From: a virus
Virus record (IMG/VR): IMGVR_UViG_3300025133_000060
Span: 1 to 64,000 of that record
Strand: one strand, 5' to 3'
Length of the DNA: 64,000 nucleotides
Shown here: positions 883-64,000 of the stretch, in pieces
How positions within the stretch are numbered: the stretch's first letter is position 1
Layout: each line of letters starts with the position of its first letter
Notes under the pieces: generated by a model
Told to the model about the DNA's origin: nothing
The model's input: only the letters and a program-made list of their open reading frames with translations
Databases searched by the model: none
Program-made: the position numbers and the translations under genes

Positions 883-1280
883 TCGCCATCACCTTCGAAC
901 GAATCATCAATCTCGCCATCTCCATATTGAGATAGGAATGATTCACCAAAAGCGGCGGTCGGGTCGAACACCAAATCCGAGTTCTCGTCAAAATCCAGAA
1001 CAATCACATCTCTATCGGTCTCGATAGCGCACACATGAGTGAACATCGCTTCAATCATTTGGAGAGGATTGTATTGACAGCCTGCGCCAAGTCGAACTCG
1101 ACCTGACCCTTTTGTGTCGGGGAATCTGAAATCCCAATGAAGTGGGTGAATGGCAACGATGCAATCTGGGGTTGCACCCTTCTGATTCGAGATGGCTTCG
1201 GATTCTTTGAATCCCCACATCTCCATGCCGTTCTTGCCAGCAACGACCCAATGCAATATCGGTGAGTTCAACAAGTCCAT
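879..1280 (-). CDS. Hypothetical protein with acidic C-terminus
   Basis: 133 aa ORF in an operon-like minus-strand run. Confidence 0.65.
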   Translation of the reverse strand: MDLLNSPILHWVVAGKNGMEMWGFKESEAISNQKGATPDCIVAIHPLHWDFRFPDTKGSGRVRLGAGCQYNPLQMIEAMFTHVCAIETDRDVIVLDFDENSDLVFDPTAAFGESFLSQYGDGEIDDSFEGDGE

Positions 1281-1293
1281 ACCCCCATCTGTA

Positions 1294-1542
1294 TCAAGCG
1301 GGGTTCTTCACGGTGTCCCTCAATTTCATCACGGCCTGTCTGCAACGAGCGCAGACCGATGTTGCTCGACTCATGTCGGCTAATGAAAGAATCTCTTCGA
1401 CCCATACGCCATCATGCACGATTGCGTTGTCTGTGCTTCGCCCACACACCGTCTTTGGGTTGATACCCGCCATGATGTGCAATCGCCCTGTGGAGCCGCC
1501 AGTAGCCACACTCACGAGCGTGAGGGGTTGGCGGCTTTCCAT
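1294..1542 (-). CDS. Small putative Zn-binding protein
   Basis: LHI...CGR...CARC motif; likely start MESRQ near the upstream stop. Confidence 0.55.
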   Translation of the reverse strand: MESRQPLTLVSVATGGSTGRLHIMAGINPKTVCGRSTDNAIVHDGVWVEEILSLADMSRATSVCARCRQAVMKLRDTVKNPA

Positions 1543-1715
1543 TTTCCCGATTCTTCGGTTATCACCTGTTGGACATTGATAGCAATCGGGTTGGTCTTGC
1601 GTTGTTTGCATTCATCATAGGCGGCTCGGAGTGCTTCGCCCACATTACCTTCGGTGGTGAGGTCAACGCATCCTTGTGAGCCCATATCGACCCGTATTCG
1701 GAACTTCTTCGGCAT
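1512..1715 (-). CDS. Hypothetical protein
   Basis: ATG 30 nt after class II promoter TTGATAAGGGTGGGG (1731-1745). Confidence 0.65.
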   Translation of the reverse strand: MPKKFRIRVDMGSQGCVDLTTEGNVGEALRAAYDECKQRKTNPIAINVQQVITEESGKWKAANPSRS

Positions 1716-1772
1716 GAATCACCATCGACACCCCACCCTTATCAAAGGGCAGGATTAGGCTAATGGTGGGCT

Positions 1773-2105
1773 TCAAAAAGTTCGTGGGTCCACGCCAACC
1801 ATAACGACTTCTTGGTTGACAACATCATAGACCATCATCTCGATTGTTCGATAGCCCCACCATGTTGTGGTGTTGCCGTTCATGAAAGCGAGTGTGTCTT
1901 GGATGGTCTTGGATGATAGTGAAGCGATTGCTTGCGAGCAGACGATTTGCTCGCCATCCTCTTTGCCAGCGGAGTTCGCATGGTCGAACTTCTCTTGGTC
2001 AGCGATGACCATGACACGAGCGACTCGGTATTGCTTCGGCGACTTGGATTTGTTGGCTTGCTTAATCATCAGGTTTCGGTTGATATTCACCATTTGAATC
2101 ACCAC
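1773..2105 (-). CDS. Hypothetical protein
   Basis: 110 aa ORF coupled to the upstream cassette gene. Confidence 0.6.
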   Translation of the reverse strand: MVIQMVNINRNLMIKQANKSKSPKQYRVARVMVIADQEKFDHANSAGKEDGEQIVCSQAIASLSSKTIQDTLAFMNGNTTTWWGYRTIEMMVYDVVNQEVVMVGVDPRTF

Positions 2106-2443: not shown

Positions 2444-2687
2444 GAACATCGGTGGAGGTTCACCCTTATGAAGTGTTCGGAATATCAATGTGATAAAATA
2501 TCAATGGAAAAGTCTGTCAAGGTTGACACCAATTCCGAACTGCGAACGGTGAGACGGTTTGGGATATTGAGTTCGATATGCAACACCAGAAGATTGGAAC
2601 TCGGATTTGAACCAGATGCAGATTCCAGATTTGTTCAATAACCAAACCATCGCCACCGTGAAAACCCGCCTTGAGGAATCCGATGTC

Positions 2688-2906: not shown

Positions 2907-2907
2907 A

Positions 2908-3192
2908 TCATTCAATCCAAGCATCTGGCGTATCTCGAACTGGAATCTCTTCGACCCATGTGCGAGTCTTGACAACCACTTCTTCATACTCTTCGTGGCG
3001 AATCACATCATTCCAACCGACTCGGACCCACGACCCTTTGAAGAATCTGACCAATGGCACATCGCATGATATACAATAATGTTCATCAAGTCCTGTTGCT
3101 TTGTCGACTCGTGAGCCGATGTTGTTGAAAGTCTTGTAGTCCGAACACGATTCATTCCTGCAAGTCCAGCACACAGAACTCACTTCACTCAT
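2908..3192 (-). CDS. Zn-finger-like protein
   Basis: CWTC...CISC; ATG overlaps the upstream stop. Confidence 0.6.
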   Translation of the reverse strand: MSEVSSVCWTCRNESCSDYKTFNNIGSRVDKATGLDEHYCISCDVPLVRFFKGSWVRVGWNDVIRHEEYEEVVVKTRTWVEEIPVRDTPDAWIE

Positions 3193-3670
3193 CCGTTGTT
3201 GGCAATCCATTGGCTTCGATGTCGGCACGAATCAATGATTCAACGGCTCGACCTGCGGCCACGCCTTTGGCTTTCCAAGCCTTGATGTAGTCAACACAAT
3301 CCTCTGGCAGATTGACGGTGATTTGTTTGAGATTCTTTTTGGGTTTGCTCACGACACCGGCGGCGGCTTCGGCTTCGGCCAATGTCATCTCGGTCGTGAA
3401 TCCAATTCGGAATCTGGCGTTGCCATGATGTGAAGTTCCATTCCTGCTCAAGACAACGGCATCGACACCATCAACCACTCTTGCCACTTGCTTCAAGACA
3501 AATGCCAATTGGCGTGGGGTCTTTCGATGATTCTCTGGGAGTGTTGGGTCGGCGTTGACTCGTTCGGCCAATTGTGCCGATGTCATCGGACCCATCGACT
3601 TTGTGTCAACAAGTGTGGTCAATATACTTCGCATCAAGGGTTTGGGGATTCTTTTAGTCATAGTGTTCAT
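3185..3670 (-). CDS. Putative transcription regulator (wHTH-like N-terminus, ribbon-helix-helix C-terminus)
   Basis: PMTSAQLAERV helix; C-terminal KQITVNLPEDCVDYI...AVESLIRADI fits the RHH pattern. Confidence 0.55.
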   Translation of the reverse strand: MNTMTKRIPKPLMRSILTTLVDTKSMGPMTSAQLAERVNADPTLPENHRKTPRQLAFVLKQVARVVDGVDAVVLSRNGTSHHGNARFRIGFTTEMTLAEAEAAAGVVSKPKKNLKQITVNLPEDCVDYIKAWKAKGVAAGRAVESLIRADIEANGLPTTDE

Positions 3671-7419: not shown

Positions 7420-8304
7420 TCATATTCGCCGAACTGACCCTCGAATATCACGCCTTCGGAATGGCGGCTTCAATTGCTCTGTGGCTCTAAGGGTCGTCAG
7501 ATAGGCCATAGACACCGTTGAGAGTCCTTCGACACCCCAAGCAAGGGAATGAAGCCTCATCGCTTCACAGACGCTCTCTGATGACGCACAGTTCCATTCT
7601 GCGGCTTGTATCACACTCAAGGGATGAGAGGACACCCCACACTCGTGAGGATGCTCACCACGAAGGATGGTGGCTATCTCGTGAAATCCCGTTCGGGTGC
7701 GATGGGTTGCTTCGACTTCGTTGTCGACCCAATCGGTCGGAGTGGTCTTGAGCAGGAACATCGCACTTCTCCACGATGATGAGTTTTCAGCAATCCATCG
7801 AATCCGAACTGGGTCGACATCTGGACTTATCGAACTCAATAATGCCACCAAGTCATTTGAACTTGGTTGTGGAATCTCGTGAGTCAATCCAGATTTGCGA
7901 TACGCCCAACCGACTTCGGATTCAGATTGAGCGATGATGATAAGTGGGAATGCTTTGGACTTGATGGCGGAATCGAATGCTCGCCATGCTGACTTGGAGA
8001 TTGCACCAGCATCCTCGACAATGAGGCATCTCGGTTCACCAAAGAATGTCGGCATCCGAGCCTCGCTGAACACTCGATTGAAATGCTTGACATCTCGGTC
8101 GGCATCTGCATGACTCTCGATGATGTCGAATCCAGCCTCGTGAGCATACGCTCTGGCGACTGTTGACTTGCCAACACCGGAATCACCCACTATCACCAAA
8201 GGATAGACTGACGGTGTTCCATAGCCCCAAGAATCAAGCCATGACTTGATGGGTGCGAAGTTCCTGCGGGGTCCAAATAGTTCTGCGGGAGTTAAATCAT
8301 CCAT
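7420..8304 (-). CDS. Clamp loader, RFC large-subunit-like AAA+ protein
   Basis: Walker A GDSGVGKS, A..AGFDIIESHAD, LIVED; start MDDLTP overlaps the stop of 8297-8476. Confidence 0.7.
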   Translation of the reverse strand: MDDLTPAELFGPRRNFAPIKSWLDSWGYGTPSVYPLVIVGDSGVGKSTVARAYAHEAGFDIIESHADADRDVKHFNRVFSEARMPTFFGEPRCLIVEDAGAISKSAWRAFDSAIKSKAFPLIIIAQSESEVGWAYRKSGLTHEIPQPSSNDLVALLSSISPDVDPVRIRWIAENSSSWRSAMFLLKTTPTDWVDNEVEATHRTRTGFHEIATILRGEHPHECGVSSHPLSVIQAAEWNCASSESVCEAMRLHSLAWGVEGLSTVSMAYLTTLRATEQLKPPFRRRDIRGSVRRI

Positions 8305-10328: not shown

Positions 10329-13021
10329 ACAAACCAATCTCCCATTGTTGACTGACTCATTCCGGCTCTCGCTTGTTCCCACGATGTTCCGAGCGCACCA
10401 AGAATCTGTTTGAAAGAATTGGAATTGACGAAGAACTTCTCAATCGCTCCCACCCTATCGACCACGATACCATACTCGGCTGGGTCATCTCCCCACTCAA
10501 TTGCCACGAGTCGGTTCGGTGGGATTCCATTCTTGGTCGCAGAGGCCATGAATATCACCGGCTTATCACCGAGCGTGAATGATGTGTTCAGATGTTTGTT
10601 TGACCACATCGCCGACCGATGCGCTTGAGTTCCAGATGTTTTCACTCCCATCGGTTGGCCGTAATCTCCATCGGTTGTCAAGGTTGGGTCGAGCATATCG
10701 GATTCGATAGAGCGAATCAACAGATTGATGTCAGTTCGGGAATCGCCATCCAGTATAGATTTGAACAATCGCTCTTGAGCCGACTTGACAACCTGCGGCG
10801 AACTCGACCGGCGCATCTCCACACCTCTGAATCCATGATGTCCATCAAAGTCAACATAGGCATATCGCTTCTTGACTCCCCATTGAAAGTAGCGAGCATA
10901 GAAGGCATCGGGTTTGACTCTAAAGAACTCATTCTTGGGAACCCCAAGAGTAGTCTGCACGAACTCATCAAATGATGCGTTGAGAATCTCGGTCAAAATG
11001 TTCGCACAGGAATAGATGTCTGATGGTGTGAATGGTCGCACTTTGGATTCGGCTTCATCGTGGTTCTCAATTATCGTCTTGCACGAATCTGTGTCTTGAT
11101 AGAGAGTCTTGAATCGGAGTCGCACCGCATCCGCATCACCTTCGACATGAGATGGGAGTCTATCAATGTTTTGGTCTATCAATGGTTGTGGGTCGGGATA
11201 GACACCATCCTGTGTGAAAATTAGTGTGGCTCGATTGATGATTGATTTATTCCAATCGTTGTGGCGGCGAGCGATGTCGGTTATATCGGAGCCAATCTCA
11301 CCATCGACCAGTCGGAATGGTCGGCCAGATGTTTTGTCGGTTTGACCAGAACCAAGAACTCCATACCACGAGTTCATGTTCTCCTTCATCACCCGTTGGC
11401 GTTGGTTGAGTCGATTGCCAAGTTCGTCATTCCCAGATTTGTATGCTTCGGCCATATCGCCCCTCACTCGCTCTCGCTCGGTTGCGAGCCCACGAAGGAT
11501 GCTTGGCATCAATCCCTCGATGTCTTGGCGATAGATGCGACCCAATGGAGTCCGAGCGACAGGGAATGGGAATCCGTCAGGATAATCCTCTTCACGCACC
11601 TTCGTGCTTGGGTCGGCATTACAAGTGATGATGACCGATGGATATTCCATCGAGTTATCCAGTTCAAACGCATTCTGCCATAGACCTGACGGTGCATCCA
11701 TCACATACCCACCGGATTCAATTCCGCCGGTCGCCAATCTGGAGCGAACTGTATCGAGCGATGGCATCACGGCATCCCTGTCTTGGAGCAAATGACCCAT
11801 CATATCCTCAATGAGCATCATGTTCGAGTGCGCCGAATGGAGTGTGGAATTGTGGAATCCGACTTTCATCTGATAGAATGAGAGCAGGTCGAGTTTATCC
11901 ATGCACCGATGAGCCACGACATTATCCCAGATATTGTAAATCACCAACATCATCGGGTCGTTCGCCATCATCTGCTTGATTGATGTGCGAGGAACTTTGC
12001 CATAGCCGAGTGTTGATTGACCCATCCATGCGAGCGATGCGGCTCCTGTTGTTGCGGCGGCTCCCTGAACCTGCTCGGCATAGACTCGCTTTGTATCGAA
12101 TGACGGCATGAGTCCTTTGTGTCGGGTGAATAATTTTGGATAGGTCGCCCATACTGGAACATTCCCTCGATGTTCTCGCTCCATCGCTCGGCGTTGATTG
12201 ACGCATCGGTTCTTCACATACGGGTTGTCATAGTTCAGAATGTTCTGACCAGCGATAACATCGGGGTCATACTTCTTGATGACTCTCTCGAACCACCAAA
12301 GCAATCCAGCCTCACGCTCGATGTCATCCTCGCCTTCGATGTTGTGAACATGGATGCGCTCGGCCACGAGTGGTGGGATTGGGTTATCATGCTCAACAAC
12401 GGACTCCAGAGCGACCTGTGAGGCCATGAATCGTCTGACTTGTCTTTCACTTGTGTGGCGGATTGTTGCACACTCATGGGTGTCTGTGCGTTCATCATAG
12501 ATGGCTATCGACACAATCGGTTCGGGTGTTCCATTCATGTCGAGGGAGTCGGCGGTCTCTATGTCATAATAGAGAGCATTCAATTTGAAATCTGAAATGT
12601 CGTGATTGGATTTGTGGATTTCAATCGGTCGCAGAACTGTCGACTTCGTGAGAAGTTCAGTATCGACTTCGATAACCGCACCCCAGCCTGCAATCCAGCG
12701 CACCAGATTCGGCCAAGACACATCAGCACAATAATGAGGAAAAAAGAACTCACGGATTTCACGAATGTGGGATGGCTTATCCACTCGGATTTCAAAAAGT
12801 AAATCTCCTTCGACCGATGTGAACTTGGATGGTTTAATGCTCTTGACTTGCTTCGGGAGAATCATTCCCTTCGGATTCTTTTCAGTCCAGAAGCGTGGTT
12901 GAATGTTGCGAACCAACAGGTTGTGGGATTGCCCATCGAGTGCCTTGCATCGAATCTCGGTGAGCAGTTCGGGGTTCTCGTGATAGTCGAGAGCGATAAT
13001 CAAAAGAGGTTCTTTAGCCAT
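10325..13021 (-). CDS. polB: Family B DNA polymerase
   Basis: Exo I YYDIET, Exo II NILNYD, Exo III YNIWD; pol motifs DNSMEYPS, KENMNSWYG, YQDTDS, KKRY. Confidence 0.96.
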   Translation of the reverse strand: MAKEPLLIIALDYHENPELLTEIRCKALDGQSHNLLVRNIQPRFWTEKNPKGMILPKQVKSIKPSKFTSVEGDLLFEIRVDKPSHIREIREFFFPHYCADVSWPNLVRWIAGWGAVIEVDTELLTKSTVLRPIEIHKSNHDISDFKLNALYYDIETADSLDMNGTPEPIVSIAIYDERTDTHECATIRHTSERQVRRFMASQVALESVVEHDNPIPPLVAERIHVHNIEGEDDIEREAGLLWWFERVIKKYDPDVIAGQNILNYDNPYVKNRCVNQRRAMEREHRGNVPVWATYPKLFTRHKGLMPSFDTKRVYAEQVQGAAATTGAASLAWMGQSTLGYGKVPRTSIKQMMANDPMMLVIYNIWDNVVAHRCMDKLDLLSFYQMKVGFHNSTLHSAHSNMMLIEDMMGHLLQDRDAVMPSLDTVRSRLATGGIESGGYVMDAPSGLWQNAFELDNSMEYPSVIITCNADPSTKVREEDYPDGFPFPVARTPLGRIYRQDIEGLMPSILRGLATERERVRGDMAEAYKSGNDELGNRLNQRQRVMKENMNSWYGVLGSGQTDKTSGRPFRLVDGEIGSDITDIARRHNDWNKSIINRATLIFTQDGVYPDPQPLIDQNIDRLPSHVEGDADAVRLRFKTLYQDTDSCKTIIENHDEAESKVRPFTPSDIYSCANILTEILNASFDEFVQTTLGVPKNEFFRVKPDAFYARYFQWGVKKRYAYVDFDGHHGFRGVEMRRSSSPQVVKSAQERLFKSILDGDSRTDINLLIRSIESDMLDPTLTTDGDYGQPMGVKTSGTQAHRSAMWSNKHLNTSFTLGDKPVIFMASATKNGIPPNRLVAIEWGDDPAEYGIVVDRVGAIEKFFVNSNSFKQILGALGTSWEQARAGMSQSTMGDWFV

Positions 13022-13287: not shown

Positions 13288-14306
13288 GTTTTCAATCTCC
13301 TTAACCAAGCCTTGACGGTGAGAATGTCATCCTGTGAGATTGACGCATGATGAAGTGCATCACCAATCGAACTGAAAATTGAACGCTGAATTGACACCGG
13401 CATCGACCTATCTTCTGCTGTCGCTCTGAATATCGAATCCAATATGTCGCTGCCAGAGAATCCCTGTTCTGCCAGATTCTCGATTTGCTTATCCATCCGT
13501 CTGGCCAATTGTCGATATTGCTCTGGGTCGGATTCTTGAGAACACTTGAATGCGGTTTGTAGCAATCGGACTCTCGCCTTCGGGCTCAATTCTGCAACGA
13601 CATCATCGACATCATCAATCGTGGCGGTTGTTGGAACTCTCGTGGTGGCGAATAGAATGTTGAGTGCTTTACGCATGGAGCCACGAGCGACAAGGCCGAT
13701 TCTCTCGATAGCCTGTGGTTCAATATCCAGATTCTCCTTCTCGGCCACATTGGTCAAAGCAAATGTGATGTCGACCTTTGGGATTGGTCGGAATCGAGTA
13801 TCGGAGAACGCACATCTATCCTTTACTGGGTCAATCAATTTGTGAGGATAATTGCACGACAGAATGAACCGAGTCGTTTTGGAATGAATCTCCATGATTC
13901 GGCGGAGAGCAGATTGAGCATCGGGTGTCAGGTTGTCGCATTCGTCAAGGAACACCACATTGAATGGTATCGCACGAGTCTCCCCATTGACCAGATATGA
14001 ACCGATAACACCACGCCGAGCAAAGTCCTTGACCTTCGTGCGGATGATATTGATTGACCGTTCATCGGATGCGTTCAATTCAACAAAGTTTGCATCCCAA
14101 TCATCTCCGAACATCGAACGCATCAATGCCATCGCCGCCGATGTCTTGCCGACTCCAGCGGGTCCGGCAAACATCAGATGAGGGAATCCGGCATCCGCAC
14201 CAGATTGGTGCAAATCCTTGACCATGAACTTCAAGCGGTCGATGATGTGGTCTTGGCCAATAACATCATCAAGAACGAGTGGCCTATACGATTCCGCCCA
14301 TAGCAT
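13284..14306 (-). CDS. rfcS: Replication factor C small subunit
   Basis: WAESYRP..LDDVIGQ, GPAGVGKT, ELNASDER, LDECD, AQSALRRIME, FILSCNY, DRC. Confidence 0.95.
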   Translation of the reverse strand: MLWAESYRPLVLDDVIGQDHIIDRLKFMVKDLHQSGADAGFPHLMFAGPAGVGKTSAAMALMRSMFGDDWDANFVELNASDERSINIIRTKVKDFARRGVIGSYLVNGETRAIPFNVVFLDECDNLTPDAQSALRRIMEIHSKTTRFILSCNYPHKLIDPVKDRCAFSDTRFRPIPKVDITFALTNVAEKENLDIEPQAIERIGLVARGSMRKALNILFATTRVPTTATIDDVDDVVAELSPKARVRLLQTAFKCSQESDPEQYRQLARRMDKQIENLAEQGFSGSDILDSIFRATAEDRSMPVSIQRSIFSSIGDALHHASISQDDILTVKAWLRRLKT

Positions 14307-15298: not shown

Positions 15299-16129
15299 TC
15301 ACTTTTCGACCAATTTTCGCACCTTTGCGGCGAATGAAAGTGTCCGAGTTCTTGCCAGTCGGAGATAGTCATCGTTCGGGCATATCGAATCCAATATCTT
15401 CTGCTTGTGTTCTGTCGACAGATTCAATTCCAGCGAATCCAAAACGAGAACCGAATCCGGCAATCCTGTCTGGAACTTCTGGGAGAATCCATTGACGGCG
15501 GCGACTTTGGTTCCAGCACAAACACCCCACAATGCACCATGATATGATGACGATAGCACAATCTCCGATGCAACAATCTCACGGATGATGTCGGCAACCG
15601 GACCCTGCATTTTGACTTCATTCCAATCGGGGGGTCGGTTCGGATAACTGAATCTGAATCTATCCTCTCGATGTTGAACGGCCAAGACTTCGTTGAAGGT
15701 TGAACGCTTCACCATTGATGTTGCATCCCTGTCAAATAGTGGGTGCATGATACTCACACATGGAACCCACTTCGGGTCGATTCGACAATCACGGATTCCA
15801 ACCAAGTCGGCTTTGTCAATCAAAGCCTGACCGAATGAAGGGAGTGAATCATCATCGACTCCATGCCGATTCCGACCGATACCCCAAAGCGTGAGCGACT
15901 TCAAATCGGATTGGATGAGATGCTTCATGAACGGGGCGAAGTCATCATAGAGCAAACCGCCACCACCGAGAATCACATCTGCATTCCGTAGGTTCACCCA
16001 TTGAACATCGACAATATCAATCGTCTTGAAATCCTTAAGCCACTTTGGAAAATATAATTTAGGATTCGAGGCCATGTCGCCAGCGTTGTCATTATCTCGC
16101 CGATGGATGATGTATTTGCGACTCAACAA
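15299..16129 (-). CDS. Polysaccharide pyruvyl transferase-like protein
   Basis: NAGD, ILGGGGL, WGIG, IGIRD-like, SSSYHG motifs. Confidence 0.8.
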   Translation of the reverse strand: MLSRKYIIHRRDNDNAGDMASNPKLYFPKWLKDFKTIDIVDVQWVNLRNADVILGGGGLLYDDFAPFMKHLIQSDLKSLTLWGIGRNRHGVDDDSLPSFGQALIDKADLVGIRDCRIDPKWVPCVSIMHPLFDRDATSMVKRSTFNEVLAVQHREDRFRFSYPNRPPDWNEVKMQGPVADIIREIVASEIVLSSSYHGALWGVCAGTKVAAVNGFSQKFQTGLPDSVLVLDSLELNLSTEHKQKILDSICPNDDYLRLARTRTLSFAAKVRKLVEK

Positions 16130-19730: not shown

Positions 19731-19735
19731 TCTAT

Positions 19736-19852: not shown

Positions 19853-20025
19853 GTTTATCGCACCACTATCCGCCTTATCAATGCTTCGGTATCTCAACCC
19901 TTTCAACCCCTATACCCATCACAAGTTTCTCTGTTGACAAGATATTGAGTTCGATATGAAGTCCTCGAACGAGTGAGGAACGAGGTTTGTGTAAATTATT
20001 ACGGGTTTTAACTGGATGAAATGAA

Positions 20026-26819: not shown

Positions 26820-27037
26820 TCACTCTCGGTGATTGGGAATCTGATTGATGAAAGGATTTTGGATATACTCGGTCGAGAATCTCCCATCGCAATTAGAGCA
26901 TATCCATTCATATCGCAATAGTCGGAGAGAATTGATAATGACGCACTCCCGCTTGGTAATCTCACCAGTTCGGGATAGCAACCGGCTCGTTGAAAGTCAA
27001 GCACGAAGTATGTCATGTTGTGCAATCTCACACTCAT
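26810..27037 (-). CDS. Hypothetical protein
   Basis: Overlapping starts/stops with both neighbours. Confidence 0.5.
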   Translation of the reverse strand: MSVRLHNMTYFVLDFQRAGCYPELVRLPSGSASLSILSDYCDMNGYALIAMGDSRPSISKILSSIRFPITESECI

Positions 27038-47335: not shown

Positions 47336-49630
47336 TCAAATCACCCCTCGCACACTTTTAACTCGGCCACTCAACGCTCGGATAAGTGCCTTATCAAATG
47401 CGTCTTGCACTTCGACCTTATTCACATTATTCCCTGCGCCGATGTGGATGCCACCATTCACAACAATCGTTGGCGTATTGGAGCCGATACTCGTTCCGTT
47501 CTGCGCTTTCATCATCGAAGATGCGATAATTCCGTCAATCTTCTCGATTGGGATGATTGCTTCGGGTCCGGCTTCACCAACGATTCCCATTTGAGGCTCG
47601 TTCACGATTCCACCTTCGGCGAAGAATAATCCACCGACCGCACCGCCGATGAGCGCACCAACGGGTCCACCCATCATGAATCCAATTCCAGCGCCAGCCG
47701 CCGCCGACCCCATACTGAATCCGGTGTCCTCTTCTAAGTCATTTGAGAATCCCTCCATATCAAATCCAAGCATCTGGGCTATCGCCGACAATACTCGCCA
47801 AACCGGATTGATGACTTCAAACCAAGCACCAAAGGCGGCTCCAAGACCGTCAATGACTCCCTCGAAGTCGAGTTCGATAATCGAATTGATGACCTGTGCA
47901 ATCGCACCAATCATTCGATAGACCGGCTCCATGAAAAAGAACATGAATTGAAGCGCATATCCAACCAATTTGAGAACTGGCGCAAGGAGAATGAGAACAT
48001 CGGCGAAGGTTTGGAACATCGGAACCAATGCTTCGAGAAGCGGCGGCAATATCTCTCCGACAGCAACCGCAAGTTCAGCGAATGCTGGAACCATCGGTGC
48101 GAGATTCACAATCATCTCCTTGAGAGCAGGGATGACTTCTTCAACGAGCATGGGTCCGAAGTTCTCGCCGATGTCCAACAAGAACGATTCCCAAGCCGCA
48201 CCCAGACTTTGGAGAGAGAACAGGGTTGAGGTCTCCATCACCTTTGTGATTTCAGCCGTCTTTCCAATCCCCTCTTGAGCCTTCTTATTGGCTTCTGTGA
48301 GTTCATTCATCCCATCGACATTCGCCAACAATGCCATCGCCGCTGTTCCACCACGAACGCCGAATAATTCCAACATTTGATTTGTGGTCGCACCCGAATC
48401 TCGCAATTGTAGGAACACATCGCTTAGGCTGGTGAGTCCGGTTGTCTGTTCCCCAACGGTTTTGTTAAGGTCGGAATATGACTCCTTTTGTGCTTGGATG
48501 GTTTCATTGACCCTCTTCTGTTCTGCGCCAGTAATTTGTTGCTCGATTCTTCGCTCGGCCATCGTGATGTTGAGGTCGGCATTCGCTGATTCGAGTCGAC
48601 TAATTTGTTCCATCTCACGCTTGTTGAGGTCTCGCCCCTCTCGTTCGGCTCTGCGCTTGATTTTCATTATCGCCAGACTGTTTTGTTGTTGGTCGATGCT
48701 CAAGTCGGAGAGTTCGGCGTTCAACGCCTTCATCTGTGCATTGGTCGCCGCCGCCGACACCTTGCTTGCTTCAAGTTCTTGAGCAACGGTTCGGAGTGCG
48801 GTTTTGGCCGCTTGGCCAGCCGGAGTGAGTGTGAAGAAGTCGAGCCCCAAGTCTGCCATCATTTTGCGAGCATCATCGGTCGGCTTGAGCAATTTAGTGA
48901 TGGCCATACGCAAGGCGGTTCCAGCCATCGAGCCTTGAAGTCCTGCATTCCCCAATTGACCAACGGCGGATGCCGCTTCTTCAAGTGAAATCCCCGCCGC
49001 CGAAGCGGTTGGTGCGAGGAACTTCATTGATTGTCCAAGACCTTGAATGTCGGTGAAAGTCGAAGTCATTGTATTGAGCAGAATATCGTTGACATTCCGA
49101 AGTTCAGAAGTCTCCATTTGCATTCCCTTGAGGCTTGAGATTGCGACAGACGCCGCTTCGGGAATTGTGATGCCAGCCGCAATTGCGAGATTGTTGAGGT
49201 TCTCCAGAGCCTTGCCTTCGACCATCTCTTCTGAACCCAATCCCGCCAGAGCAAGAATCTGCGCCGCTTCTGCGACTTCGCTGGCGGTGGATTTGGTCGC
49301 CATTCCCAGATTGCGAACTTCGGTTGTTAATTCGGGAATGTCATCCATTCCCATTTTGCCCATGATTGCCGCCGTCTTAATCATCTTGGCTTCAAAGTCG
49401 ATGAAGGTCTTGGTTGCCTTAACCGCAAATGCCGCCACGATAGCAACACCAGCCGCCGCCGCCGCTACACCCATAGCGATGAATCCGGCTTTGGACATTC
49501 CAACGAACTTGGACATCGAGCCGCCAGATGCCGCAAGTCCGGTTTGAACCGAAGCCATGCCTTGTGAGAACCCTTTGGTGTTCGCACCGACCTTGACATT
49601 GATGTTCATATCATTATTGGGCATACTCAT
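47336..49630 (-). CDS. Tape measure protein (TP901-like)
   Basis: SASEVAEA-like segment, LALAG, GLQGSMAGTALR, FAEGGIV...GEAGPEAIIP. Confidence 0.93.
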   Translation of the reverse strand: MSMPNNDMNINVKVGANTKGFSQGMASVQTGLAASGGSMSKFVGMSKAGFIAMGVAAAAAGVAIVAAFAVKATKTFIDFEAKMIKTAAIMGKMGMDDIPELTTEVRNLGMATKSTASEVAEAAQILALAGLGSEEMVEGKALENLNNLAIAAGITIPEAASVAISSLKGMQMETSELRNVNDILLNTMTSTFTDIQGLGQSMKFLAPTASAAGISLEEAASAVGQLGNAGLQGSMAGTALRMAITKLLKPTDDARKMMADLGLDFFTLTPAGQAAKTALRTVAQELEASKVSAAATNAQMKALNAELSDLSIDQQQNSLAIMKIKRRAEREGRDLNKREMEQISRLESANADLNITMAERRIEQQITGAEQKRVNETIQAQKESYSDLNKTVGEQTTGLTSLSDVFLQLRDSGATTNQMLELFGVRGGTAAMALLANVDGMNELTEANKKAQEGIGKTAEITKVMETSTLFSLQSLGAAWESFLLDIGENFGPMLVEEVIPALKEMIVNLAPMVPAFAELAVAVGEILPPLLEALVPMFQTFADVLILLAPVLKLVGYALQFMFFFMEPVYRMIGAIAQVINSIIELDFEGVIDGLGAAFGAWFEVINPVWRVLSAIAQMLGFDMEGFSNDLEEDTGFSMGSAAAGAGIGFMMGGPVGALIGGAVGGLFFAEGGIVNEPQMGIVGEAGPEAIIPIEKIDGIIASSMMKAQNGTSIGSNTPTIVVNGGIHIGAGNNVNKVEVQDAFDKALIRALSGRVKSVRGVI

Positions 49631-50630: not shown

Positions 50631-51020
50631 TTATTCTTCTTCGGTGTTGCCAACCCTGAATCCACCCATATCTAAGCGCATTCTCTCGACTTGAAGTTTA
50701 TCCAATCCTTCGACTGGTATTTGCTGGTGTGGGCTATGCTCAAATCGTTCGACCATACACTTCTTGCACCGATGTTCGCTATCTTTGCCATGTGAAGGTG
50801 CGCCCATTTTCAAAAGTTCCTTCTTGAATCGGTGTCGCTCATCCTTAACTGGCCAATCGACTTCGATTGCACATGGATTCCCATGCTTCTCACATCGAGT
50901 GTGAAAACGATGCCCACACTTGATTGGCTTCTTGAGTGGTCGAGGCTTCTTTGCCTTCGATGCCTTCGATGCCTTCTTCGGTCGAGGGATTCGTTTGCGT
51001 TGGGGATGCCGCTTGCTCAT
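50631..51020 (-). CDS. Basic Cys/His-rich protein
   Basis: K/R-rich N-terminus, C..H..C / H.CKKC. Confidence 0.6.
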   Translation of the reverse strand: MSKRHPQRKRIPRPKKASKASKAKKPRPLKKPIKCGHRFHTRCEKHGNPCAIEVDWPVKDERHRFKKELLKMGAPSHGKDSEHRCKKCMVERFEHSPHQQIPVEGLDKLQVERMRLDMGGFRVGNTEEE

Positions 51021-54305: not shown

Positions 54306-55036
54306 GATTCACCCTTGCCGTTCCGGTTTAACTTTGTATCGAACTCAATATCCGCATCATGGATTTCACCCTCCATCTGCAAATGGTCAGTTCTCGCTCG
54401 CTTCAACAATCTCCGCAATCTCGCCGCCTCCGCCGCATCCAATGTTCCACCGTTCTCCACTTTGTATAGCAAGGAGTCGATGTCATTATCCATCTGTCGA
54501 GGTGGACCCGAACGCTTTGAAGTGTCGCCTTCGAGTTCTTTTTTCGCCGCCCGTTGTCGTTGTTTTCGCCTTTTTCGTCTGCGCTTCTTTTGTCGGGTCA
54601 AGGAGTCGTTGCCAAAAGTCGAACTCGCCGCACCAGCCTCACCAGCCTCAATCCAGATGGACTTCTCACCAGATTCAACGGCTCTGCGATGGTCGGTGTA
54701 ATGGTCTCGCCGGTGGCAATTGGAACAAATGACATCACACTTCTCAATCTCGGTGAGTATTCGCTTCTTGGCTAATCCAGCGGCGACCATTCCAGAGATG
54801 AGGTAATCCTTCTCTTCTGGGTTGCGATGATGGAACTCCAACGCCCATGCGTTATCCTCTCCAGATAGCCCACACACCGCACAAGAGAGAGTCTCTTTGA
54901 GTTTTCGCATCCACTCTCGGATTCCCCTCTTTCGACTCCGAACCTGCTCAATTCGAGAGCCACGATTTTGTTGATACCATTTGCGATGATACTCCCGTTG
55001 ATACGCCGCCCGTTTCTCTCGGTCTTTGTGTGGCAT
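54302..55036 (-). CDS. HNH endonuclease
   Basis: CAVCG...LEFHH...EIEKCDVICSNCHRRDH; Arg-rich N- and C-terminal helices. Confidence 0.85.
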   Translation of the reverse strand: MPHKDREKRAAYQREYHRKWYQQNRGSRIEQVRSRKRGIREWMRKLKETLSCAVCGLSGEDNAWALEFHHRNPEEKDYLISGMVAAGLAKKRILTEIEKCDVICSNCHRRDHYTDHRRAVESGEKSIWIEAGEAGAASSTFGNDSLTRQKKRRRKRRKQRQRAAKKELEGDTSKRSGPPRQMDNDIDSLLYKVENGGTLDAAEAARLRRLLKRARTDHLQMEGEIHDADIEFDTKLNRNGKGES

Positions 55037-55074: not shown

Positions 55075-55153
55075 TGGTGGGAGAATGACGGATTATGGAA
55101 TGCGGCGACTGGCCGTCATCCCCCCGATGTTCGGTGGAGGCTCCAGCCGCATC
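55075..55153 (-). ncRNA. Candidate ~79-nt pseudoknotted RNA ending in ACCA
   Basis: Class III promoter at 55174-55179; 13-bp stem with G-U pairs plus a 7-bp pseudoknot helix. Confidence 0.4.
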
Positions 55154-55229
55154 TCAATGTCAGTCTTTGGGGTTTATCACTATTTCACACACCGATACGC
55201 CTTTTAACCCCAAAGGAGTCAGCACAACC

Positions 55230-55631
55230 ATGACTGAACTCGCTGGTCTATCGAAAAAAGAATTGGTCGCTCTGGCCGAAGAACATGAATTGTCCATCAA
55301 GGGGTCAAAGGCAGATTTGATTGGTCGCATCGAACGACACATCGCTTTGCCGGTCGAAGAAGTGGTCGAAGAAGTCGATGAAATTAGATTCACACCGGAA
55401 CCAAAGAAGGCGAAGAAGCCGAAGAAGTCGAAGAAGGCGTCTGGGCTCCCACCTGTTGATGATGACATGGATGCCGAAGAGTTCGTCAAGGCGGCGTATC
55501 TATCCATCCTCAAGCGTGAAGCCGATGTAGGTGGACTACAACACTATTCAACCGCTATCATGATGAAGTCGATGGATAAGCAATCCGTTCTCGATGACCT
55601 GTCGGCATCTGCCGAAGCCCAATCACTTTGA
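55230..55631 (+). CDS. SAP/HeH domain + DUF4214-like domain protein
   Basis: LSKKELVALAEEHELSIKGSKADLIGRI; FVKAAYLSILKREADVGGLQHY. Confidence 0.7.
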   Translation: MTELAGLSKKELVALAEEHELSIKGSKADLIGRIERHIALPVEEVVEEVDEIRFTPEPKKAKKPKKSKKASGLPPVDDDMDAEEFVKAAYLSILKREADVGGLQHYSTAIMMKSMDKQSVLDDLSASAEAQSL

Positions 55632-56175: not shown

Positions 56176-56685
56176 TCATTCGCCCCATCTCAATTGAACT
56201 GTGTAGTCGGAGCGATAGCCAACACAATTGTCGCCCTTGCCACCGGCGGGTCCACAATCGGGTTCTTCAAATCGAACTGGCTTGGATTCATCCGAACGAG
56301 TGATTCGACAGTATTGATACGCATTGTTCCCAGATGGCTCCAAACCCGCTGACGGCTCTGTGAGAGTCCCGTTGTTCATCACGAGCAGGAACTTGGCCAT
56401 CATACCCCACAGTAGCGAGCGAGATGGAGCAAATAGTGTGATGCGCCCGAACCAGATTGATGTGCGAGCGACAGTAGTCGAACTTGTGTCGAGATTCGCT
56501 TCTTCGGTTAAACCGATTAAAGGTTGGATGCAAATCTGATATGTCTTTTGTTTTTTGTAAAGCAACCAGTTTGGATTCACGCTCGGAGTCCAAGTTCCAT
56601 CAGGAGAATCCATATTGGCTTCGATAAGGTTCTTGAGAGTAGTGTATGGGTCGATTGAAGGTAATCCTGTGTCGACAATGGCCAT
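56176..56685 (-). CDS. Tail terminator-like protein
   Basis: Position after the adaptor; TGATG coupling; beta-rich C-terminus GYRSDYTVQL. Confidence 0.6.
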   Translation of the reverse strand: MAIVDTGLPSIDPYTTLKNLIEANMDSPDGTWTPSVNPNWLLYKKQKTYQICIQPLIGLTEEANLDTSSTTVARTSIWFGRITLFAPSRSLLWGMMAKFLLVMNNGTLTEPSAGLEPSGNNAYQYCRITRSDESKPVRFEEPDCGPAGGKGDNCVGYRSDYTVQLRWGE

Positions 56686-58543: not shown

Positions 58544-60103
58544 TCAATTGCTCCCCCTCAAAGCAATCTGTGATTCCAACCATCCTGCAAGGCCATTCAT
58601 GCCTTTGCTGACGGTCGGTGTGGGGTCGTGGCGGTTCGACTTCTTGGTCGATTCCACTACGGTTGAAGCAAGACTCTTCGGGTCTGCTTCGGGTGCTGGA
58701 GAAGGTGCATCACCAATGTGTGCTGCGACTCGCTTTGCGACTTCGGCCTCAATTGCGGCTTCGGATTCTGCGGTCTCCTTCTCGGTCGTGAGTTCTGCGA
58801 TTTGAGCCTTCAATGCTTCAACCTCATCGCTCACTTGAATGTGATTCTCGATGTCAGATAATCTCGACTCGACACCAGCCAGAGCCTTGACCACTTCAAA
58901 CAATACTTCGGTTGTGGTTGGTTCTGGTGTGGATTCTTCTTCGATTGCTTCAACAACCTCTTCAACAACCTCTTCTTCTGGGGCTGATAGTTCAACGACT
59001 TCTTCGACAACCTCTTCGGTTGCCTCTTCTTCGCTGGAATCTTCATCTGCGCTGGAATCTTCATCTGCGCTCTTAATAGTAGTAATGGGTTCGTCAACGA
59101 TAACTTCTTCGTCAACAACATCGAGAACGGTGTCCTCGACTTCTTCTGATTCAATAATGGATTCGTCAGTCATGTCGGTGGTCTCCGGTCTCTGACCCAA
59201 ACGGTTGTCGAGGGGGGTATTAAGCGAATCGGTTTCTTCGGATTCCGACTGTTGCGATTCAGATGGAGGTGAAATTGCTTGCAGTAGTGCTTTCAGGTTG
59301 TCGACTTCTCCACGAAGTTCTTCGATACTGGATGGGTTCTCCGTATCGACTTCGATACTGCCACAAGAACACATCGAACTGGCGACCGAGAGATTTTCGA
59401 CTGGCGATTCCATATCTCCACCTTCGGATGGTTCTTCGCTCGGAGATTCGGATGGCTCTTTTTCAAACAGGATTGCGATTGCATCTCCCATATCCTCATA
59501 CCCGATGATGTGCTTCTCAACATTGAATAGTGCGTTCGGCGATGCCGGAACATCGACCACACTCGTCTCAAGCCAGTCAATCTCGGTGAATGTCAGATAA
59601 CACACATCATCATCCAAACACTCTTTGACAGCCGCACGAGCGATGAACCCAATAGAGAACGCACGAAGCAATCCCTTGCGGATTTTCCTGACGATGGCCG
59701 TCTCTCCACCATCAATCAATGCTCGGCCAATCGGAACTTCACCCTCGATTCCATCCCATTCGCCCATCTCAACATCGAGCATTTTGCCGATGACTCCTGT
59801 GTCTTTACTATGATTATACAGGATGACTGGATTCTTAGAGTAGCCAGCCCACGCATTGAGGATGGCGGTTGGCGCAACGAGTTCGTTGTGGCGGTCAAGC
59901 ATATCGGCGTTGCCAACATATACAGGACCCCGCACGATAACATCATCATCATCGGCGGTTGCTCCCTCTTCTGCTTTCGCTTGGTCGGAGTAATGTTTGG
60001 TATCTATCTCGAACGGAATCTGAAAGTCCAATTTCACTTCGACTTCACGAGATTCACCTTCACGAGAAGAGAACTCATCTGTGTTCAGCAATACTGCTCG
60101 CAT
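58544..60103 (-). CDS. HK97-type prohead protease fused to an acidic scaffold
   Basis: DRHNE, NPVILYNH, IGK, FSIGF, ETSVVDVPASPNA; E-rich coiled-coil C-terminus. Confidence 0.92.
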   Translation of the reverse strand: MRAVLLNTDEFSSREGESREVEVKLDFQIPFEIDTKHYSDQAKAEEGATADDDDVIVRGPVYVGNADMLDRHNELVAPTAILNAWAGYSKNPVILYNHSKDTGVIGKMLDVEMGEWDGIEGEVPIGRALIDGGETAIVRKIRKGLLRAFSIGFIARAAVKECLDDDVCYLTFTEIDWLETSVVDVPASPNALFNVEKHIIGYEDMGDAIAILFEKEPSESPSEEPSEGGDMESPVENLSVASSMCSCGSIEVDTENPSSIEELRGEVDNLKALLQAISPPSESQQSESEETDSLNTPLDNRLGQRPETTDMTDESIIESEEVEDTVLDVVDEEVIVDEPITTIKSADEDSSADEDSSEEEATEEVVEEVVELSAPEEEVVEEVVEAIEEESTPEPTTTEVLFEVVKALAGVESRLSDIENHIQVSDEVEALKAQIAELTTEKETAESEAAIEAEVAKRVAAHIGDAPSPAPEADPKSLASTVVESTKKSNRHDPTPTVSKGMNGLAGWLESQIALRGSN

Positions 60104-61291: not shown

Positions 61292-61400
61292 ACAATCAAA
61301 CAAATCTCCCACCTTTATCATTGATGGGGTGTGAATAGGATTGTGATTTAGAGCATTGATATACCGAAGCCTTTATAGGGGGAGACCCCCACGAATGTTT

Positions 61401-61691
61401 ATGAGCAACCGTAGCCCAGACAACACCTTCGAGACCGGACAGAGATACACCGCAACATCAATCTGCAATTCAGATTGCACTTGGACATTCACTATCGTCA
61501 AGCGAACTGCAAAGACCGTTTGGTTCACAACCGACTATGGAGTCGGTGCAGAAGCAGAAGTTCAACGCCGAGCAATCAAGACCGATGCAAACATCTGGAC
61601 TATTGCAGACCGAAACATCTCCGAATACTTCATGCCCTTTGGGACTTATTCGATGGCGGCTTCTTGCGGCGCTGACTCACGAGTCGCTTGA
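61401..61691 (+). CDS. Hypothetical protein (class I cassette, inverted)
   Basis: F..G..Y...SIC.SDC.W.FTIVKRTAKTV; ATG 29 nt after the class I TATA. Confidence 0.7.
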   Translation: MSNRSPDNTFETGQRYTATSICNSDCTWTFTIVKRTAKTVWFTTDYGVGAEAEVQRRAIKTDANIWTIADRNISEYFMPFGTYSMAASCGADSRVA

Positions 61692-61755
61692 GAACCCACG
61701 ACTTGGATTCCGAACACCAACGATACTCGGAGTCTCTTGTCATCAAGTTCGACAT
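61630..61755 (-). CDS. 41-aa peptide, antisense overlap with 61401-61691
   Basis: ATG exactly 30 nt after class II promoter ATGATAACGGTGGGG. Confidence 0.35.
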   Translation of the reverse strand: MSNLMTRDSEYRWCSESKSWVLKRLVSQRRKKPPSNKSQRA

Positions 61756-61781
61756 AAACGAGGGGAGACCCCCCACCGTTA

Positions 61782-62171
61782 TCATTTTGTCGAGCCGCTT
61801 CTCGCAATTACTCGCAAGACTCGATTCCCGTCTTGTTGGAATATCCTTTTGACTGATTTGCGTTGAGCAATCACCGCCGGTTCTAAGAATGGTTGGGGTC
61901 GTTGTCGGTGTGTTCCAAGTTCAACGGCTTGGGCATAATCCACTCCTGTTCCACCGCCGCCAAATTGCACGATGCGTTGATGTTGATTAACTCGCAACAC
62001 TCGACCCGATGCTCGAAGCGCACCAGTATCAACAGGGGCTCGCTTCTTCGCTTCTGTGAGGATTCGGTGGGCGACCTTATCGAGCGTCTTTGCGGTCGCT
62101 TTGACATACGCTATTTGACCCTGACCAAAGGCGAGAGATGCTTTGATGAATGGCCATCCACCTTTGCTCAT
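61782..62171 (-). CDS. HK97 gp10-like neck/tail-completion protein
   Basis: AK.RAPVDTGALRAS, YA..VE.GT, PQPFLEPA. Confidence 0.88.
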   Translation of the reverse strand: MSKGGWPFIKASLAFGQGQIAYVKATAKTLDKVAHRILTEAKKRAPVDTGALRASGRVLRVNQHQRIVQFGGGGTGVDYAQAVELGTHRQRPQPFLEPAVIAQRKSVKRIFQQDGNRVLRVIARSGSTK

Positions 62172-64000
62172 CAGTTTCCACCTTCACGCTCTGGGAGAGT
62201 TTCTATCGCCGGAACCAACACATCTTCGGGTGGAACAATCTGGTCGGGGTCGGGAGTGTCCTCAACGGCCACAAATGTGCATCGACAATTTGGATGCGCT
62301 GGAACAACCGACTTCGATTCTTCGATTTTGTATTTGGCTCCTTCATACGGAGCGCACAATGCTCTGTCGGTTTGGGTGTCGACAACGACCAATCTCTCCA
62401 CATATTGGAATCCTGCTCGCCGCATTCCAGAGATGTGTGAGTTCTCAACCACTCGGCGAGTCTCGGTTCGTGCTATGCGTGAGTAGTAGTATGATGGATA
62501 TTTTGCACCGTTGGGGTCAATCAACGAACGCATCTCGGCTGAAGCCCATTTCCATGATTCTCCACCAGACACCATTCGCTCAAAGACACCGATGACATTC
62601 TTGCGATGTGAGCCGAGTGTGTTGCGGAGAGCAGGGAGAACCCATCGCCTTCGCCAGAATGCAATCGCCGCAATATCATCGGCCATCAACGCCGAAGCCA
62701 TTCCGGTTGGTGCAAGTGTGAGAGCGAGTGAATCCGCATAAGCCGAAGTGAGCATGACTTCTGCTTCGACAATTTGCTTTTCGAGTGTTGCGGCGATATT
62801 GGTGTCAATACGGCCAATGGCGACCTCGATGTCGTTGAGCGATATTGTGTCTTTTCGTCTGAACATTTTGATGGGAATGTCAAGGTCGACATTTGGAATC
62901 TCAACCGCTTCATCGCCACCGGCGAACATCTGGTTCAATTCTCTCATCACATCGGATGCGAATTGTTCTTGTTGGTCGGCAAACATTTGTTCCATCAGGA
63001 TTGTATTCTGCCCGATGAGATTGTCATATTCGTCAGCAGATTTGATTCTCCTGTTCTGTATATCGAGCCGAATATCGGCGGATAATCCAGCCGGTTCGAG
63101 TTCATCATTCCAATCTGGAGCCGAACCTGCTCCATCGCCTTCATCAAGTGGCCGACTTTTTTCAGGGAATAAATCGTTGAGAGATGGGGGAGTCGCTGGA
63201 TTCTCACCTTCACCGCCGAGCGCATCCGCACCAGCATTGATGGATAACTTCGGAGAGAGATAGAATGGGTCGTCTGCTTCGGGTTCGCTCAATCGCTCAA
63301 GACCAAGCATCTGGCGAGCCTCGTTGATACTGACCACACCTTCTTGGCGCAGATTGCTGATTGCATTCGACTCGGCCTTGCGAGTCTCGGCCAGTTCTTT
63401 TTCACGGCTCGGTCGGATGGTCGTGAAATTGAATATCCATTCGTCAATCCCAAGCAACGGCAACAGGCGATTGTTGATGACGGCTTCGATTCGGCGATGG
63501 AATGATTCAATCACATCATACCACGCATCCAATTGTTGTTCTGGATTTGACATTTTGCCTGTTTGGACCCAACCCAATTTCATTGGTGGGATTCCGAACA
63601 CAGCGCAAATCTCTTCACGATAGTAATAGAGCAAATCCAATTGCGCCCCTTCACGAGTCGAATCGAGAACCCTGTGCATATTGAATCCTGTTCCACCATT
63701 GACGGCGACCAACCCGAACGGTGATTTACCACCAGTCAATTGTTGCTCAAGTAGTGAGAGCATCGCCTTCATCTCGGCGTTGCTGATGTCGCCGACATTG
63801 AGGATGGTCTTGGGGAGAGTTCCGGTATAGAGTTCGTTCAGATAATTCGACAGGTTCAGGTGTCCGGCGATGACATTCAACAAGGCGATGAGTGGTGAAG
63901 TTCCATACGCTCGGCCATGCTTGAACTTTGAAATGTGAATCACTTTGTCGGCGGAGAATTGTCGAGTCTCGCCATTGACCTTCTGCGTATAGGCCATTTT
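62171..64000 (-). CDS. Portal protein fused to a C-terminal MuF (SPP1 gp7-like) domain; 5' end beyond the window
   Basis: YG.SPL, EICAVFGIPP..LG, SINEAR..LGL (portal); RIARTET...P.HPNCRC (MuF). Confidence 0.9.
   Translation of the reverse strand, partial: KMAYTQKVNGETRQFSADKVIHISKFKHGRAYGTSPLIALLNVIAGHLNLSNYLNELYTGTLPKTILNVGDISNAEMKAMLSLLEQQLTGGKSPFGLVAVNGGTGFNMHRVLDSTREGAQLDLLYYYREEICAVFGIPPMKLGWVQTGKMSNPEQQLDAWYDVIESFHRRIEAVINNRLLPLLGIDEWIFNFTTIRPSREKELAETRKAESNAISNLRQEGVVSINEARQMLGLERLSEPEADDPFYLSPKLSINAGADALGGEGENPATPPSLNDLFPEKSRPLDEGDGAGSAPDWNDELEPAGLSADIRLDIQNRRIKSADEYDNLIGQNTILMEQMFADQQEQFASDVMRELNQMFAGGDEAVEIPNVDLDIPIKMFRRKDTISLNDIEVAIGRIDTNIAATLEKQIVEAEVMLTSAYADSLALTLAPTGMASALMADDIAAIAFWRRRWVLPALRNTLGSHRKNVIGVFERMVSGGESWKWASAEMRSLIDPNGAKYPSYYYSRIARTETRRVVENSHISGMRRAGFQYVERLVVVDTQTDRALCAPYEGAKYKIEESKSVVPAHPNCRCTFVAVEDTPDPDQIVPPEDVLVPAIETLPEREGGN

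Follow-up and report, generated by a model that had tools for sequence, protein, structure and literature searches.

The DNA analysed here, called the window below, comprises the first 64 kb (64,000 nucleotides) of the 81,530-bp virus record IMGVR_UViG_3300025133_000060 (G000), and the element in question is a 14-bp motif, TATYGRNNYCRATA, that is scattered over it. Counts are given either for the window or for the whole record. Pfam scans of the window and record proteins gave the gene content of a magrovirus-type archaeal tailed virus, with nearly all genes carried on the minus strand. The replication genes comprise a family B DNA polymerase (polB), an RFC-like clamp loader, an AEP primase and a pair of AAA_5 and VWA genes. 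Further enzymes are a PD-(D/E)XK nuclease, an XPD-like helicase and an HNH nuclease, and the structural genes encode a tape-measure protein, portal, capsid, prohead protease and the large terminase subunit. By polymerase, the nearest isolates are haloarchaeal tailed viruses, at ~23% identity. No integrase was found in Pfam scans of ~70 proteins, a subset of the open reading frames (ORFs). Relatives (G001-G011) were gathered by polymerase-based searches, and their sites were counted over whole records.

Copy number and geometry of the motif

An earlier note on this DNA, made by reading the sequence, had reported 27 exact copies of the motif, and all 27 are present where it placed them. Dinucleotide-preserving shuffles of the window gave a mean of 0.04 matches and a maximum of 1, so that the motif is enriched ~800-fold, and the whole record holds 33 sites. 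The note had given about eight one-mismatch copies; ten were counted, all six of its named examples among them, and exact and one-mismatch sites together number 37 against 1.47 expected. The commonest 14-mer, TATTGAGTTCGATA or its reverse complement, occurs in eight identical copies in the window, at each of the eight positions given before, and the single gene strand carries it both ways round. Scanning viral contigs for this exact 14-mer gave unrelated single matches among the matches listed, and no mention of the motif was found in the magrovirus literature checked.

The window contains 122 TATYGR half-sites, and for 27 of them the partner YCRATA lies exactly 2 bp further on; among gaps from -6 to 29, none other than 2 bp was seen more than twice. 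Each site is a pair of inverted TATYG(R) half-sites with a centre-to-centre distance of ~9 bp, or roughly one helical turn, and the middle of the site is nearly free in sequence. Inverted half-sites at this distance are a geometry typical of a helix-turn-helix or winged-helix dimer. The half-sites vary independently, with all four combinations at positions 4 and 11 present and no covariation between them. Sites show no preference for any module or for any position within genes.

Selection at the DNA level

Synonymous codons were permuted within ORFs, and this reduced the 33, 36 and 35 sites of G000, G001 and G002 to 5.05, 2.61 and 5.00. About 3 of the 5.05 sites left in G000 are intergenic ones that the shuffle does not touch, since codon-order shuffling leaves 3.27. 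In the whole record 27 of the 33 sites lie inside ORFs, and these 27 are distributed over the three frames as 19:7:1. Frame 0 holds the single site and is rare because TAT-TGA would make a stop codon. The examples of differently read copies given in the earlier note, LLSSI at 7828, DIEFD at 54337 and YRTQY at 38869, are correct. Because synonymous-codon shuffles remove the sites, selection acts on DNA, as that note had claimed; the motif is under selection at the DNA level and not at that of protein.

For six of the sites called outside ORFs, a class that rests on crude gene calls, at least one relative has a site within ~130 bp of the matching gene end. In two of these gene-end cases (G001 and G002) the site stands on the other side of the gene end. 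A site lies just downstream of the giant gene in four genomes. The intergenic sites keep no fixed distance to start codons. Several non-coding sites lie at junctions between conserved genes and strain-specific cassettes. The gene at 19293-19820, next downstream of site 19943-19956, is unique to G000, and the site is kept in three genomes.

Conservation among relatives

The dense array is restricted to one magrovirus clade (Table 1). The records come from different metagenomes, and therefore the motif is not an assembly artefact. When 20 coding sites of G000 were mapped codon by codon, the orthologous position was still a motif in 11/20 cases in G001 and in 8/20 in G002, and the changes in retained sites fall at degenerate positions only. 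Third-codon identity is 0.36-0.46 in the site flanks, which is near saturation, versus 0.75-0.87 inside conserved sites. Orthologous positions hold either a perfect site or unrelated sequence with at least 4 mismatches, and almost nothing between. Although the positions have turned over by about half, density remains at 0.40-0.45 per kb in all three complete genomes. The 123-bp terminal repeat of G001 has no link to the sites.

Table 1. Number and density of motif sites in the magrovirus records compared
Record	Length	polB identity to G000	Sites	Sites per kb
G000 (this virus)	81.5 kb		33	0.40
G001	81.7 kb	80%	36	0.44
G002	78.3 kb	67%	35	0.45
G007	65 kb	polB not on contig	30	0.46
G008	15.7 kb	polB not on contig	11	0.70
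G011	34.8 kb		18	about 0.5
G005	33.5 kb	63%	3	0.09
G009	45.3 kb	53%	5	0.11
G010	35.4 kb	54%	2	0.06
G003	82.8 kb	54%	1	0.01
G004	80.7 kb	54%	0	0.00

Even spacing of the sites

Genomes were taken as circular and the gaps between neighbouring sites were compared with random placement. Gap lengths have a coefficient of variation of 0.60, 0.54 and 0.55 in G000, G001 and G002, versus 0.96 for random placement (P <=0.0012 in each). The smallest gaps are 601, 462 and 308 bp, respectively, and the largest are 5.5-6.9 kb. Gaps in G007 are also more even than random (coefficient of variation 0.71, P 0.038) despite four sites within an 860-bp hub. This even spacing is new evidence for an array acting at the scale of the whole chromosome and, together with the steady density, it argues for a chromosome-scale role rather than gene-by-gene control.

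The motif in host DNA

Marine Group II GroEL was located via the viral GroEL of a relative, and 69 metagenome contigs around this Marine Group II (Thalassarchaeaceae) gene, with GroEL at least 89% identical, gave a host sample of 716 kb. The sample contains 2 motif matches, which are one orthologous site on two related contigs, and none of a reversed control pattern. No enrichment of the motif is seen in this Marine Group II DNA, where it is ~300-fold sparser than in the virus. As far as sampled, in one neighbourhood of one Marine Group II lineage, the motif is not a host feature. A GroEL-type chaperonin is encoded by the motif-free relatives (G004 L176:1441-3015; L177), and the closest cellular homologues of the viral GroEL are Marine Group II archaeal GroELs, at ~52% identity.

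A public 1.9-Mb metagenome-assembled genome labelled Legionellales contains 13 sites, and the control pattern occurs 3 times over the whole of it. Seven of the sites lie on two magrovirus contigs, PBLX01000067.1 (L171) and PBLX01000017.1 (L172), and 6 elsewhere. The presence of these two contigs in the assembly is probably due to misbinning.

Palindrome avoidance and the motif centre

The earlier note had stated that the central hexamer is never a perfect palindrome. This holds, as a palindromic RNNY centre is found in 0/145 sites of five genomes, where ~18 would be expected. The cause implied there, a preference of the binding protein, does not account for it. Each of the tetramers ACGT, AGCT, CGCG, CTAG, GATC and GTAC is absent from G000, where ~310 copies would be expected. 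Palindromic hexamers as a class reach 0.18 of expectation, and the eight palindromic GRNNYC hexamers were observed once genome-wide against ~155 expected. The motif centre is never palindromic because short palindromes have been purged from the whole genome, and not because of the binder. Short palindromes are not avoided in the Marine Group II sample.

The purge is also seen in the relatives G001-G010, and the forbidden set of tetramers varies among the viruses. G002 is without TCGA and CCGG, and G003 and G004 are without AGCT and GATC only. In G002, TCGA occurs 0 times against 300 expected and the half-site TATCGA 0 times against ~10 expected, and the genome keeps 35 sites that are built from TATTGA and TATCGG. 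Since a full array exists without TATCGA, the Y and R positions are truly tolerated. The array is an example of a predicted binding site that co-evolves with restriction avoidance, G002 having a full array and zero TCGA.

Candidate reader proteins

Two proteins that the earlier note had proposed as winged-helix binders, of 161 and 115 amino acids (Table 2), both model as winged-helix folds, with a three-helix bundle and a beta-hairpin wing that superpose on winged-helix domains of solved structure. The model of the 161-aa protein has a pLDDT of 87 and winged-helix matches at Z 8.4-7.2, including Orc1/Cdc6 and MarR types, with Foldseek probabilities of 0.87-0.99. The model of the 115-aa protein has a pLDDT of 79; its best match is 2od5 at probability 1.0, and the TFE-alpha winged helix was also matched. 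The Z values are middling, and the predicted fold alone is no proof of function. The C-terminus of the 161-aa protein is modelled in the monomer as a strand-like KQITVNLP followed by helices 123-134 and 139-154, a part that the fold searches barely covered.

The recognition helices of both proteins appear to track the motif. Every lineage that has the motif, the distant and GC-poor G009 and G010 among them, shows one recognition-helix pattern in the 161-aa protein; in motif-free G003 and G004 this is changed to F-D-L-K-K. The 115-aa protein is more conserved than polB (88% identity in G001, 82% in G002). All high-density genomes share the same recognition-helix sequence in it; the low-density G005 group differs at the end of the helix, and motif-free G003 and G004 differ by three substitutions. 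This tracking is a suggestive correlation among related genomes. The 161-aa protein is predicted to rank ahead of the 115-aa protein as the reader.

Three further proteins are weaker candidates. The 372-aa protein is present in G001, G002, G007, G008 and G005 and absent from G003, G004, G009 and G010; no family or fold could be assigned to it by Pfam, PDB sequence searches or ESM Atlas. The 129-aa protein, with 34 K/R among its residues, is present in G001, G007 and G002, partial in G009 and G010, and absent from G003 and G004. The SAP-DUF4214 protein, which had also been named as a binder, occurs irrespective of the motif and is for that reason a weak candidate. Readers of the ParB/Noc, MatP and TetR-type SlmA kinds were not detected by Pfam among the ~70 proteins scanned, a subset of ORFs.

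Table 2. Motif sites in the window, candidate reader proteins and modification genes of the virus
Feature	Position	Strand	Location or description	Relatives
Site	1013..1026	.	coding, frame 2	not conserved in G001 or G002
Site	2565..2578	.	intergenic	G001 site at matching gene end
Site	7828..7841	.	AAA+ gene, frame 1	conserved in G001
Site	10696..10709	.	polB gene, frame 2	conserved in G001 and G002
Site	12661..12674	.	polB gene, frame 2	conserved in G001, G002 and G005
Site	13431..13444	.	RFC gene, frame 1	not conserved
Site	15383..15396	.	coding, frame 1	
Site	16833..16846	.	downstream of primase gene	same offset in G001 (134 nt) and G002 (143 nt)
Site	17561..17574	.	primase gene, frame 2	conserved in G001 and G002
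Site	19943..19956	.	70 nt downstream of winged-helix gene 20026-20373	site 71 nt (G001) and 50 nt (G002) downstream of orthologous gene
Site	24783..24796	.	coding, frame 1	conserved in G001
Site	25643..25656	.	coding, frame 2	conserved in G001, G002 and G005
Site	26795..26808	.	coding, frame 2	
Site	29853..29866	.	XPD-like helicase gene, frame 2	conserved in G002
Site	32434..32447	.	43 nt downstream of giant gene	site at same junction in G001, G007 and G008
Site	34227..34240	.	giant gene, frame 1	conserved in G001
Site	36978..36991	.	giant gene, frame 1	
Site	37877..37890	.	giant gene, frame 2	one mismatch in G001
Site	38869..38882	.	giant gene, sole frame-0 site	
Site	40797..40810	.	coding, frame 2	conserved in G005
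Site	44173..44186	.	coding, frame 2	conserved in G001
Site	44774..44787	.	coding, frame 1	
Site	47476..47489	.	tape-measure gene, frame 2	
Site	54337..54350	.	HNH gene, frame 2	
Site	56613..56626	.	coding, frame 2	conserved in G001 and G002
Site	59344..59357	.	prohead protease gene, frame 2	
Site	62797..62810	.	portal gene, frame 2	
Candidate binder 1	3185..3670	-	161 aa; N-terminal winged helix, C-terminal ribbon-helix-helix-like tail	
Candidate binder 2	20026..20373	-	115-aa winged-helix protein, basic N-terminal arm	
Candidate binder 3 (weaker)	27034..28152	-	372 aa; CxxC...CxH motif, helical region	clade-specific
Candidate binder 4 (weak)	50631..51020	-	129-aa very basic Cys/His-rich protein, structural module	
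SAP-DUF4214 protein	55095..55631	+	Pfam SAP and DUF4214	equally in motif-free G003 and G004
C5 cytosine methylase	L170:13053-15290	-	745 aa; just outside window	patchy
N6/N4 methylase	L170:15510-16403	-	297 aa; just outside window	patchy
PAPS-reductase-domain protein	60155-61321	-	inside window	patchy

Interpretation of the array

Our data indicate that the TATYGRNNYCRATA array probably consists of dispersed sites for a predicted virus-encoded winged-helix dimer. A dimeric reader of the helix-turn-helix type fits best, given the symmetric geometry of the sites, the independence of their halves and their all-or-none conservation. According to this interpretation, a viral, two-fold symmetric, sequence-specific DNA-binding protein would recognise the 14-mer, and selection would maintain about one site per 2.3 kb without close pairs or long gaps, so that bound dimers might stud the whole viral chromosome whatever the underlying gene. 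The array would then act at the scale of the chromosome rather than as ordinary promoter operators, and might organise, condense or tether the replicating viral DNA, or mark it as self. All the refuting tests that the earlier note had put forward were carried out, and the motif withstood each of them. The dimeric binder of that note stands in part: selection on viral DNA and a two-fold symmetric reader are supported, and binding by a dimer is what we infer.

Several points weigh against this interpretation. Protein binding, the viral origin of the reader and the effect of binding are all things that we infer from sequence, and a host-encoded reader, or an enzyme instead of a passive binder, would fit the same data. 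Most sites are intragenic, which is unusual for regulators. Pfam, PDB sequence searches with single sequences and profiles, and the ESM Atlas give no family for the candidates. Diverged forms of both winged-helix candidates are also found in the motif-free relatives, and therefore the phylogenetic profile is only suggestive. The ribbon-helix-helix strand of the 161-aa protein is the same in G005, where the motif is ~4-fold rarer. The host sample covers a single genomic neighbourhood in one Marine Group II lineage, and the true host may be another.

An unlikely but not negligible alternative is that the sites are substrates of a site-specific DNA enzyme. Such an enzyme might methylate or otherwise modify the DNA, or nick it, or the sites might form a recombination or end-protection signal that, like a two-way Chi, limits nuclease damage to viral DNA. 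Even spacing would be expected of a signal that is never far from any break or fork. The virus encodes the PD-(D/E)XK nuclease, the XPD-like helicase and the HNH nuclease, as well as a C5 methylase, an N6/N4 methylase and a PAPS-reductase-like protein, and the extreme purge of palindromes shows strong nuclease pressure. However, no modification gene is common to all motif-rich genomes: among the relatives compared, the C5 methylase is confined to G000 and G007, and G000 and G002 have the N6/N4 methylase, to which G001 shows a weak match interrupted by an internal stop. A length of 14 bp far exceeds typical methylase or Chi sites, and known Chi sites are asymmetric and oriented. The symmetric, unoriented 14-bp site lacks the defining features of a Chi-like hotspot, and among the proteins scanned there was no RecBCD/AddAB, only the PD-(D/E)XK nuclease. 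The recognition sequences of restriction-modification systems are 4-8 bp long and are avoided in phage genomes. The motif is strongly enriched while true short palindromes are purged, the reverse of what defines a restriction-modification site.

It is less likely still that the reader is a host protein, for example a Marine Group II transcription factor or chromatin protein, which the virus recruits or titrates by accumulating sites. Density differs among related viruses that all have homologues of the candidates, and different hosts could explain this. G009 and G010 keep the motif though they are as distant from G000 as motif-free G003 and G004. Sampled Marine Group II DNA has essentially no sites, which counts against a host reader, though a regulator with few host sites would be compatible with it, and no positive evidence points to a host factor.

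Cyanobacterial HIP1 suggests another explanation, which we consider very improbable: the motif might be an iterated palindrome with no binding role, a by-product of biased mutation or repair that converts near-sites. HIP1 is an 8-bp perfect palindrome, found about once per kb or more densely throughout the host chromosome and linked to a methylase. It is over-represented within genes, where it is read in several frames and is conserved between orthologues; its function is unknown. The magrovirus motif is likewise intragenic in several frames and kept at orthologous positions, and conversion could produce the all-or-none pattern among orthologues. In contrast to HIP1, however, the motif is 14 bp long, never perfectly palindromic (0/145), restricted to the virus and evenly spaced, and cellular abundance is lacking, with 2 matches in 716 kb of one lineage that represent one orthologous site. 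Blind conversion would not give even spacing without close pairs, no methylase is shared across the clade, and any mechanism with specificity for 12 defined positions would have to rely on a sequence-specific protein of its own.

The least probable alternative is that the element acts in RNA, as a 5-bp hairpin with a tetraloop or as the site of an RNA-binding protein. Since the motif is the same on either strand, any mRNA that spans a site contains UAUYG-RNNY-CRAUA. Hairpins with 4 or more base pairs are predicted for 86% of 145 sites, and U4/G11 (47 sites) exceeds the non-pairing C4/A11 (21 sites) on the main coding strand. However, the hairpins are marginal (mean -0.93 kcal/mol), 21/145 sites have a C-A mismatch in the stem, and the U/G excess is that expected if Asp is used more often than Asn at this codon in the dominant frame. 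In addition, positions 4 and 11 do not covary, and non-coding DNA and stretches beyond stop codons contain sites as well.

Comparison with known site arrays

Functions of sites at the scale of a chromosome are known for bacterial chromosomes and a few phages, and to our knowledge there is no example of such arrays in archaeal viruses. The sites of matS/MatP, NBS/Noc, SBS/SlmA and parS/ParB, and the KorB operators of RK2, are 12-16-bp palindromes read by dimers. They are scattered over the replicon, often within genes, and mark DNA for organisation or segregation and not for the control of single genes. The replicons concerned are cellular chromosomes or plasmids, in which such sites either keep to one domain or are kept out of it. 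The magrovirus motif shares the palindromic architecture of the parS, matS, Noc and SlmA sites, but its copies cover the whole virus genome and are over-dispersed, which sets it apart from domain-restricted marking of this kind. Papillomavirus E2 sites (ACCN6GGT) and the baculovirus hr palindromes bound by IE1 are many-copy sites for viral dimers, which serve replication, transcription and tethering and are clustered in regulatory or hr regions. They resemble the magrovirus array in being palindromic multi-copy sites around a viral genome. However, they are clustered and belong to eukaryotic viruses, and they have no homology to the magrovirus proteins.

Cluster A mycobacteriophages have more than 20 copies of a 13-14-bp site, the stoperator, in a genome of ~50 kb, about 1 per 2 kb. 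The stoperators have lineage-specific variants and are read by one phage-encoded protein, a repressor of the L5 gp71 type that acts genome-wide (PMC9283540). These phages are temperate, and their 13-bp sites are asymmetric, bound by a monomer, oriented with transcription and located in promoters or short intergenic gaps (PMC9283540). The magrovirus array is similar in having many copies of one short site spread over a viral genome at a comparable density, but its sites are two-fold symmetric, unoriented and mostly intragenic (27/33 in ORFs). The inverted half-sites, the occurrence of both orientations on one gene strand and the intragenic position set the array apart from stoperators.

A more specific version of the viral winged-helix reading, which seems possible but doubtful, is chromosome-wide self-marking. 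The viral dimer, bound to ~35 evenly spaced sites, might set the palindrome-stripped viral DNA apart from host DNA. If so, the marks would serve organisation, selective handling such as tethering to a replication factory or packaging, or protection while host DNA is attacked, and archaeal viruses would have their first described example of a genome-wide marking array. For magroviruses, an abundant and uncultured group, the management of DNA is hardly known. The array is a concrete, testable handle on this question, comprising a defined 14-bp site, a short list of candidates and relatives of high, low and zero density as natural controls.

Other repeated sequences

A non-coding hub of 860 bp in G007 (L254:11411-12274) contains four motif sites and several oligo-A/T tracts, together with three copies of a 35-nt repeat ending in CCAGACGACCAA. 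The same four-site cluster is found in G011. The hub may serve as a regulatory region, a small-RNA locus or an origin.

The motif-free relatives were searched for gapped palindromes, and no equivalent array emerged. GGTCC-N4-GGACC proved to be collagen-like Gly-X-Y coding repeats, and TATAA-N8-TTATA a promoter repeat. Enrichment of 8-mers mainly reflected codon effects. The most over-represented hexamer of the window relative to a Markov model is GGGTCC/GGACCC (43 versus 13.3, both strands counted), whose copies are scattered in coding DNA at ~43 places (e.g. 1786, 2318, 14160 and 35374). Long collagen-like Gly-X-Y coding repeats with GGNCCN periodicity lie at ~5.1-9.8 kb in G003, at ~0.2-2.3 and 78.7-79.9 kb in G004 and at 81269-81310 in G000.

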